Assembly (NCBI GenBank): GCA_000004695.1
Contig: CM000151.3
Span: forward strand, 5,280,001-5,344,000
Direction: 5' to 3'
Length of the DNA: 64,000 nucleotides
From: Dictyostelium discoideum
Taxonomy: Eukaryota
The position numbers and the translations under genes are program-made. This document shows positions 56,701 through 60,709 of the stretch, piece by piece. The notes below the pieces were generated by a model. The model saw nothing but the letters and a program-made list of their open reading frames with translations. It had not been told where the DNA came from and searched no databases. How positions within the stretch are numbered: the first letter of the stretch is position 1; every line of letters begins with the position of its first letter.

Positions 56701-56940
56701 GTTGTTGCTATTGTAACTGTTGTTATTATTATTGTTGCTATTGTAACTGTTGTTATAGCTATTATTGTAGCTCATGGTGTTTCTAAACCTTTTATTATTA
56801 TTATTAGGATCAAATTCCTCTGAATTGTTAAGAGGAAATGAATTGTCCTGAAAGTATGGTCTATCTGTTTTACCTATTTTTCTAATCAAAACTTTTAAGT
56901 ATGAAATAGATTTTAAGTTTTTTAATATATTATATTCCAA
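51812..56940 (-). CDS. DEAH-box RNA helicase, DHX9 (RNA helicase A)-like: N/Y/G-rich N-terminus, two dsRBDs, helicase core, HA2/OB; 6 exons proposed
   Basis: Exons on the minus strand: 55797..56940 (N/Y-rich; GGA G|GTAATA), 55065..55634 (dsRBD1, ENSKGFLNQYMIKLGKRPNDQY...SKTQCAEKACRVLAEMGL; ATA A|GTATGT), 54656..54990 (dsRBD2, ISWKFDAAKRKIEQYCKQFGYPENNVYRSHE...; GAA TTT|GTAAGT), 53868..54535 (motif I GDTGCGKTTQIPQF, motif II DEVHERD; CAT AC|GTATGT), about 52020..53774 (tatag|T GAT TTC.. LMSAT, VLSTNIAETSITINDVVYVIDS, HA2/OB; GAA AA|GTATGT before a ~45-nt poly-A) and, tentatively, 51812..51923. The helicase core is DHX9-like throughout. Without the last splice the ORF would read through poly-T as poly-Phe. 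Confidence 0.75.
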
Positions 56941-57298: not shown

Positions 57299-57676
57299 TT
57301 ATTTAACATAAAGTGTTGGATCTATTCTGTACATATTACCATATTGAATTGAAGGTGTTTGTTTTTCATCAACTTCAACAACACACACTGACATTGCTAA
57401 AATTTAAAAAATAAAATAAAATAAATTAGTTTTAATTAATTTTTTGAGATGATAATAATTTATTATTTATGAAAAAAAAAAATAATAATAAAATAACATA
57501 CTATCTTGATCAACGATTCTATATGTTACAATTACAGTTGAATGAGGTTGAAAAAAATTTAATACTGCCACATTATTGAAAGAAAAGAATTTACCATGAC
57601 ATGGTGTCCCAATATATGTCCATTCTAAATAAGTTTCTAAATTTTTTGGTGCTGTTTTAAACTAATTACAATAATT

Positions 57677-57726
<50 letters not shown>

Positions 57727-58172
57727 AAATAATATTATTTAATCAGTACATTGAAATGATAACACACTAAACATAGTATTTTTTTTTTTTTTTTTTTTTT
57801 TTTTTCACCTTCATAGTATAACCAAAATGTAATTCATTTTTGTTTAAACTTTTACCAAAACTCCATTTTAAATTTCTAGAGCCAGGCTCTGTATCATATT
57901 TTGTAAATTCTTCAATCTATTTATAAAATTACTCCCACCTATTAGTATCTTTACAAAAATCTATATTGATATCATATGAAATCATTTGATTGATATCATT
58001 TGATTATGATATGATATGATGTGATATGATGTGAGATGATACATACAAAAACTACAGTATTACTTGTTCTTATATGGTGAAATAGACCACCAAACTCTTT
58101 CCACTCTAGATTTCTTTTCCATGAACCAAGAAGATATGTGTAAAAATCATTATCTTGAATGTGAAACTATAA

Positions 58173-58208
<36 letters not shown>

Positions 58209-58359
58209 ATGTTTTTTTTTTTTTAAAAAAAAAAAAATTATATTAGATTAGATAAGATTAGATTAATTAGGTATAAAAAACTTAATTGAAATTTTAATCA
58301 TTGATAAATTACCCTCATAGGTTTTGGTACCCCCTCTATATTGGTTCCACTATTCCCTC

Positions 58360-58447
<88 letters not shown>

Positions 58448-58585
58448 GCTATTATTATTATTATTATTATTGCCACCAATATTATTACTATTATTATTAT
58501 TATTAAAATTATGTATTTGCTGAATCCTAGGTGATGTGCCTGACAAAACAGGCGCTACACTTATTTTTCTCCAATTATTATCCAT
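57299..58585 (-). CDS. Hypothetical protein: poly-N N-terminus plus a conserved-looking ~160-aa C-terminal domain; 5 exons, about 252 aa
   Basis: Exons 58313..58585 (MDNNWRKISVAPV..., ends AGG|GTAATT), 58047..58166 (tttatag|TTT CAC.., 40 codons, GTT TTT|GTATGT), 57809..57916 (aaatag|ATT GAA.., 36 codons, AAG|GTGAAA), 57502..57661 (gtaattag|TTT AAA.., GAT A|GTATGT) and 57299..57396 (tttag|CA ATG.., stop TAA). All five are phase-consistent and were found outside the ORF track. I could not assign a domain family. Confidence 0.65.

Positions 58586-59599: not shown

Positions 59600-60709
<1,110 letters not shown>

Follow-up and report, generated by a model that had tools for sequence, protein, structure and literature searches.

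A chain of short open reading frames (ORFs) on the minus strand of Dictyostelium discoideum contig CM000151.3 (assembly GCA_000004695.1) had been read, from the letters of the DNA alone, as a five-exon gene ending in a domain of about 160 amino acids (aa) that could not be named. The locus raises two questions: whether this chain is a real gene, and what its product might do. The stretch analyzed here, hereafter the window, comprises the 64,000 nucleotides (nt) from positions 5,280,001 to 5,344,000 of the contig, and all coordinates below are window positions. The window is about 22% GC and contains poly-Asn-coding AAT tracts and homopolymer-rich spacers, which are typical of the AT-rich DNA of Dictyostelium. 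Of the five exons, the program-made list shows just two as ORFs that start with ATG: exon 1, in an ORF of 95 aa, and exon 5, in one of 31 aa. Short open frames are not rare in such DNA; on the minus strand between 50 and 64 kb, stop-free windows of 40 codons amount to ~22%, which speaks for the reading that no real gene exists and that the proposed exons lined up by chance. Evidence on this point came from the gene structure, an independent annotation, comparisons with other dictyostelids, and transcripts of a relative.

Exact spliced mapping and scripted exon assembly placed a five-exon gene on the minus strand from 58585 to 57299, with four GT...AG introns and a continuous ATG-to-stop frame of 759 nt that encodes 252 aa. 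Exon 1 (58585–58313, −; 91 codons) starts with an ATG at 58585, which is immediately preceded by an in-frame stop, and encodes the N-terminal motif MDNNWRKISVAPVLSG, which is conserved, along with a linker of poly-Asn and a GVPKPMR segment. The linker corresponds to an Asn-rich low-complexity tract of AAT repeats (58504–58352, −; residues 28–78), in which 44 of the 51 residues are Asn. Intron 1 (58312–58167, −; 146 nt, 14% GC) follows in phase 0 and reads GTAATT...TAG. Exon 2 (58166–58047, −; 40 codons) opens the predicted barrel domain described below, contributing a short N-terminal helix and strands 1 and 2, and carries the near-invariant motif G-x-W-K-R-N-L-E-W. It is followed by intron 2 (58046–57917, −; 130 nt, GTATGT...TAG), whose GC content (24%) is the highest among the introns and which includes a short stretch of imperfect tandem repeats resembling ATCATATCAC (57990–58045, −). 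Exon 3 (57916–57809, −; 36 codons) encodes the predicted barrel strands 3 and 4 (LKWSFG...GYTMK), and intron 3 (57808–57662, −; 147 nt, GTGAAA...TAG) is 9.5% GC with long A runs. Exon 4 (57661–57502, −; 160 nt, or 53 1/3 codons) ends in phase 1; it encodes the predicted strands 5 to 8 and the next turn, and carries the highly conserved motifs EW...G..C.G and TYR..D. Intron 4 (57501–57397, −; 105 nt, GTATGT...TAG, 7.6% GC) is in phase 1, and exon 5 (57396–57299, −) consists of 95 coding nt (31 2/3 codons) and a TAA stop codon (57301–57299), encoding the final two predicted strands (MSVCVVEVD and SIQYGNMYRI) and a C-terminal tail. The stop codon overlaps with AATAAA motifs, which may serve as the poly(A) signal. 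Overall, GC content is 8–24% in the introns versus 22–30% in the exons, and no paralogue of the gene was found within the 64-kb window. Its neighbors are a poly-Asn-rich gene at 59600–60709 and a gene that ends near 56940.

Most details of the sequence-only reading stood up to this mapping. The sizes that it had given for exons 2 to 5 (40, 36, 53, and 32 codons), their coordinates, and the peptide strings that it had quoted are all correct; the intron phases match at every junction (0/0/0/1), and TAG is the acceptor of all four introns, both as it had proposed. The donors need one amendment: GTATGT and GTGAAA are present, but GTAAGT occurs nowhere in the gene, the donor of intron 1 being GTAATT. 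The gene had also been called newly assembled, which holds relative to the ORF list only; the product and its orthologues are already public as hypothetical proteins. Exact database look-ups of the model product, the exon 1 ORF, and four neighboring ORFs of the window, made with the reference AX4 annotation in view, returned no record.

One of these public proteins is KAM9965150.1 (ACTFIW_004955), which is annotated independently in another D. discoideum assembly (GCA_054859355.1) and is identical to the 252-aa model except in the length of the poly-Asn tract; this length accounts for every difference between the 252 aa encoded here and the 241 aa of KAM9965150.1. The tract is thus a coding microsatellite polymorphism between the two D. 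discoideum assemblies, and the barrel domain is unaffected by it. By spliced mapping, the KAM9965150.1 locus (L001) has the same five exons as the gene in the window. The coding and noncoding parts of the two loci have diverged very differently. Across exons 2 to 5, only 3 of 483 nt differ, all of them synonymous and with no indels: one synonymous difference in the 120 nt of exon 2, none in the 108 nt of exon 3, two synonymous differences in the 160 nt of exon 4, and none in the 95 nt of exon 5. The introns, by contrast, contain 54 mismatches and 58 gap columns in ~530 nt. Intron 3 holds in-frame stops and is 147 nt long in the window versus 134 nt at L001, and it therefore cannot be coding. 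Its donor (57808–57803, −) is a weak GTGAAA in the window and GTAAAA in the other assembly.

The same pair of loci differ outside the exons as well. Between 57299 and 58900 of the window and L001, introns and flanks show ~10% mismatches and many indels, and a neighboring 369-aa protein carries several amino acid substitutions relative to the L001 assembly. This seems much for a single species, and the two assemblies, both labeled D. discoideum, may represent distinct lineages, with alignment noise in low-complexity sequence possibly inflating their divergence. The 369-aa protein is encoded by an Asn-rich ORF on the plus strand (59600–60709, +) that ends in ...GGDDD and a stop codon, whereas its annotated L001 counterpart continues as ...GGDDDESLITNHSIPGIRKVFGQ; the discrepancy points to a short 3′ intron or to differing sequence, and the exact product of the ORF has no database record.

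Other dictyostelids share most of the exon–intron structure. The orthologues of Polysphondylium violaceum and Acytostelium subglobosum have four exons, and their three introns match introns 1, 2, and 4 in position and phase. Exons 3 and 4 of D. discoideum correspond to one 268-nt exon in both species, and since their lengths add up exactly (108 + 160 = 268 nt), intron 3 is an insertion specific to D. discoideum. Four contigs of ~1 kb, each from a different JGI sample, encode a 90%-identical orthologue (P0001) in one uninterrupted frame. The 3′ end was read in only one of them (L005), which ends in a poly(A) run and in which the sequence runs contiguously across the three junctions that correspond to introns 1, 2, and 4. 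Because they lack introns and L005 is poly(A)-ended, the four contigs look like spliced, polyadenylated mRNAs. Introns 1, 2, and 4 have RNA-level support from this related species, and the support for intron 3 is comparative only. In an alignment of 28 sequences, no gap falls at any of the four junctions. Exon 1 is also represented elsewhere: counterparts of its N-terminal segment, MDNNWRKISVAPVL, and of its C-terminal one, VPKPMR, are present in Polysphondylium and Heterostelium orthologues, with a PKPxR/K segment common to both.

Collectively, these data leave the chance-assembly reading with practically no probability. Homologues with E values down to 6e-97 align gap-free to each of the four downstream exons, an independent annotation is identical, the intron positions are conserved in other dictyostelids, spliced transcripts exist in a relative, and exons and introns contrast sharply in divergence; this evidence already refutes it. 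We regard it as virtually certain that the locus is a genuine, spliced, protein-coding D. discoideum gene of five exons and 252 aa, as the sequence-only reading had claimed.

The comparison also bears on the public models of two orthologues. The deposited Cavenderia fasciculata model DFA_01743 ends in ...QFGNIFCK by way of a splice to a distant exon. The Cavenderia genome (GL883010.1; L004:2791-2877) encodes the conserved C-terminus (MSVCVVEVDEKQTPSIQFGNMYRIDPSIY) contiguously, and the 3′ end of the deposited model is therefore wrong. The Heterostelium model PPL_01935 (P0008) has a similarly aberrant C-terminus, and its 3′ end is probably wrong, too.

How widely is the protein distributed? The product of exons 2 to 5 (161 aa) matches 35 proteins with 99–100% coverage and E values down to 6e-97, several of these homologues being derived from transcriptomes (of Physarum and in several Trinity assemblies). 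When the family profile was run exhaustively against 1.84 billion representatives, it recovered only 294 proteins at E ≤ 1e-3, indicating a small family. Its members include the dictyostelids Dictyostelium, Polysphondylium, Acytostelium, Cavenderia, and Heterostelium; other Amoebozoa (Physarum, Balamuthia, Acanthamoeba, and Endostelium); the oomycetes Thraustotheca, Pythium, and Globisporangium; and Naegleria, the jakobid Stygiella, the chlorarachniophyte Lotharella, and a hemimastigophoran. All members with a named source are protists; among the matches that carry an organism name, which are a minority, none is from an animal, a fungus, or a land plant. A further protein search with a broad alignment gave no additional named taxa among the matches listed. 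Identity to the 161-aa domain is 77% in Acytostelium, 70% in Physarum, 59% in Balamuthia, ~50% in oomycetes, and 41% in Naegleria. The orthologues and family members KAM9965150.1, KAF2076589.1 (P. violaceum), DFA_01743, PPL_01935, ACA1_028150, and THRCLA_21388, whose identity outside the poly-Asn tract ranges from 100% (KAM9965150.1) down to 50%, are all without an assigned function, and searching the literature by locus tag, or for nitrobindin in connection with Dictyostelium, found nothing.

Two unusual architectures were encountered in these searches. The protein P0084 (358 aa, from an ENA metagenome contig) carries a PDZ domain (PF00595, E 5e-7) N-terminal to the barrel; the fusion could be genuine and hint at protein–protein scaffolding, or two genes may have been called as one. 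P0133 and its cluster (Saprospiraceae, Candidatus Defluviibacterium) are giant T9SS-sorted repeat proteins in which 20 stretches match profile positions 97–146. Their match has a summed E of 4e-23 and covers one third of the profile, and the apparent homology is probably a repeat artefact.

The claim that the C-terminal ~160 aa contain no nameable domain held in the searches of Pfam and of solved structures. The 252-aa protein has no Pfam match even at E = 10, and no credible Pfam family is common to the 28 aligned members at E up to 1. The YdgV model (PF23502) hit 9 of the 28 members, covering only 17–21 residues of its 33 positions at 15–18 bits against a cut-off of 27 bits, and was set aside as noise. 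The Balamuthia homologue is labeled as a SKICH domain-containing protein (PF17751); this label has no HMM match behind it and implies an Ig-like β-sandwich, which is not the predicted fold. Neither the protein nor the family profile had a meaningful match among PDB sequences, the hits to a sulfotransferase and to NELF-E (E ≥ 0.07) being due to chance. Judged by sequence comparison, the 161-aa C-terminal domain defines a small, strongly conserved, protist-wide family that lacks a Pfam entry.

To predict its fold, a 171-aa construct was modeled with AlphaFold2 using the 28-sequence alignment (residue numbers from here on are those of the construct). The model (pLDDT 92.2, pTM 0.84) shows a short helix (residues 18–22) followed by ten consecutive β-strands. 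Marks of the calycin class are a helix at the N-terminus, G-x-W in the first strand, and an Arg in the last strand; in proteins of this class, the basic last-strand residue packs across the conserved Trp. The domain sequence carries all three marks: among 51 diverse members, G24 of the strand 1 G-x-W is invariant, W26 is conserved in at least 90%, and R163 in the last strand is nearly invariant. The predicted model is, as in calycins, a closed antiparallel up-and-down β-barrel within the range of 8–10 strands. We conclude that the C-terminal domain is, with high confidence in the predicted model, a soluble ten-stranded up-and-down β-barrel of the calycin type.

Foldseek placed this model closest to the S-type phycobiliprotein lyases CpeS/CpcS, namely 4tq2 (GtCPES; E 2.3e-6, TM 0.62) and 3bdr (TeCpcS/Ycf58; E 9.5e-5), at a sequence identity of only 10–12%. 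In the structural ranking, nitrobindin scored below CpeS, and fatty acid-binding proteins (FABPs) scored clearly below the group of CpeS, BFA1, and nitrobindin. For a profile-level comparison, the sequences of 3bdr and 4tq2 were obtained by querying the PDB with a CpcS-like sequence, and CpcS/CpeS profiles were then built. Using hhalign, the family profile aligned to the CpcS/CpeS profile with a probability of 0.2% and an E of 0.26–0.3, a result obtained with a shallow template profile (Neff ~2.2) where a deeper one might still detect something; the alignment covers only the N-terminal F-F-x4-G-x-W segment. The profile is shallow because the 120 matches listed are all at least 76% identical to 3bdr. 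PF09367 matched neither the protein (E up to 10) nor any of the 28 members (E up to 1).

The residues with which the lyases work could likewise be compared. GtCPES holds its bilin inside the barrel by conserved, buried Glu and Arg residues and then hands it to an acceptor protein; its pocket residues are E136, R146, and R148, with W75 at the rim (bioRxiv 10.1101/2020.03.31.018853). A segment that holds all three pocket residues, E-E-R-x-W-F-A-x-P-x-L-R-x-R, is conserved between 3bdr and 4tq2. In a sequence-level comparison, no counterpart of it was found in two alignments of the family. The protein is like the S-type lyases in its predicted architecture but does not belong to PF09367. The hosts differ as well: dictyostelids, oomycetes, and Naegleria are heterotrophs that are not known to have phycobiliproteins, so that both the known substrate and the known acceptor of the lyases are absent. 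It is improbable, in our estimate, that the family represents a divergent branch of the S-type bilin lyase barrel lineage, acting as a cytosolic heme or biliverdin chaperone or transferase in heterotrophic protists and delivering or attaching the pigment to a conserved partner.

Three other barrel families offer alternative functions. The first is that of FABP/CRBP (PF00061), by which the protein would be a passive intracellular carrier of lipids or fatty acids. In the model, the helix-turn-helix lid of these carriers is absent, a loop of 6 residues being all that connects the first two strands (residues 24–34 and 41–53); the FABP and lipocalin models of Pfam do not match the protein; and, besides the low structural rank of FABPs, the 50% identity between Amoebozoa and oomycetes is far above what is usual for lipid carriers. 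We consider a passive carrier unlikely.

The second alternative is an enzyme with its active site in the barrel, like the nitrobindin-type heme peroxynitrite isomerases or the OlmO/OssO spirocyclases. Nitrobindin, the C-terminal domain of THAP4, and Rv2717c belong to PF08768 (DUF1794), and the window protein matches neither this THAP4_heme-bd model nor related ones. In nitrobindin, a proximal His ligates the heme, whereas no His is invariant or nearly invariant in the alignments of the family, leaving no candidate proximal heme ligand. Among the 51 diverse members, moreover, only three Gly residues are strictly invariant, which leaves no universal catalytic residue. An enzyme of this kind has, in our view, a low probability.

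The third alternative follows BFA1, an assembly chaperone for the chloroplast ATP synthase: the protein would bind a partner through the exterior of the barrel and hold no small ligand. BFA1 is a structural neighbor that acts on proteins rather than small molecules, which counts against a ligand-based mechanism for the family. However, BFA1 and DUF3598 proteins (5yvf and 2o62) are plastid or cyanobacterial proteins of 270–320 residues with tandem CpcS/CpcT-like barrels, BFA1 itself having two barrels in ~320 residues, whereas the window protein is a single barrel from heterotrophic protists without sequence similarity to either. No partner of it is known. We rate a chaperone of this type as doubtful, about on a par with the carrier and the enzyme.

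Set against these alternatives, the handling of a small ligand is the mechanism that we prefer, tentatively. The protein consists of three parts: a short N-terminal motif that dictyostelids conserve, a poly-Asn linker that is disordered and varies in length, and the 161-aa barrel domain. In orthologues of several lineages, only 5–20 residues precede the barrel and a hydrophobic leader is absent, nor was a signal or transit peptide found; these short N-termini suggest a soluble, probably cytosolic protein. The charged or polar residues conserved within strands are K27, R28, N29, E31, R134, Q157, and R163. C107 is the best-conserved Cys but is not universal in the wider family, and the neighboring His varies, which argues against a covalent or axial-ligand role for either. 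Barrels of this type keep a ligand in their interior; by analogy, the barrel would hold a small amphipathic ligand against buried polar or charged residues (R28, R134, Q157, and R163), their inward or outward orientation and the cavity being predicted solely by the alternation along the strands. A tetrapyrrole (heme or bilin) or a carboxylate lipid could serve as the ligand, its identity being a guess from the same analogy. Seven consecutive residues are conserved in strand 1, so both of its faces must be constrained, and divergence is unusually slow, as the identity between Amoebozoa and oomycetes attests; for these two reasons, a ligand that is presented to a conserved partner or acted on is more likely than one that is passively carried. 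This ligand-handling mechanism is plausible but falls short of probable, whereas the account as a whole (a spliced gene, a poly-Asn linker, a calycin-type barrel, and cytosolic handling of a small ligand) is, on balance, slightly favored.

The N-terminal motif, M-D/E-N-(N)-W-R-K-I-S-V/I-A/T-P-V-L, spans the first 15 codons (58540–58585, −) and occurs in dictyostelid orthologues only. Its R-K-I-S presumably resembles the consensus of basophilic (PKA-type) kinases.

Taken together, these results confirm a correct gene model in the D. discoideum genome and identify at least one orthologue whose public model has a wrong 3′ end. They add verified splicing, a protist-wide family without a Pfam entry, and a predicted fold that stands beside the bilin lyase and nitrobindin barrels. 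The family is unusually well conserved and spans several eukaryotic supergroups. With a fold assigned, a protein so far labeled hypothetical becomes the subject of a hypothesis, namely that it binds a ligand and hands it over, which can be tested in an organism amenable to routine knockouts. If the bilin lyase lineage reading were true, the family would represent a tetrapyrrole-handling step previously undescribed in non-photosynthetic eukaryotes.
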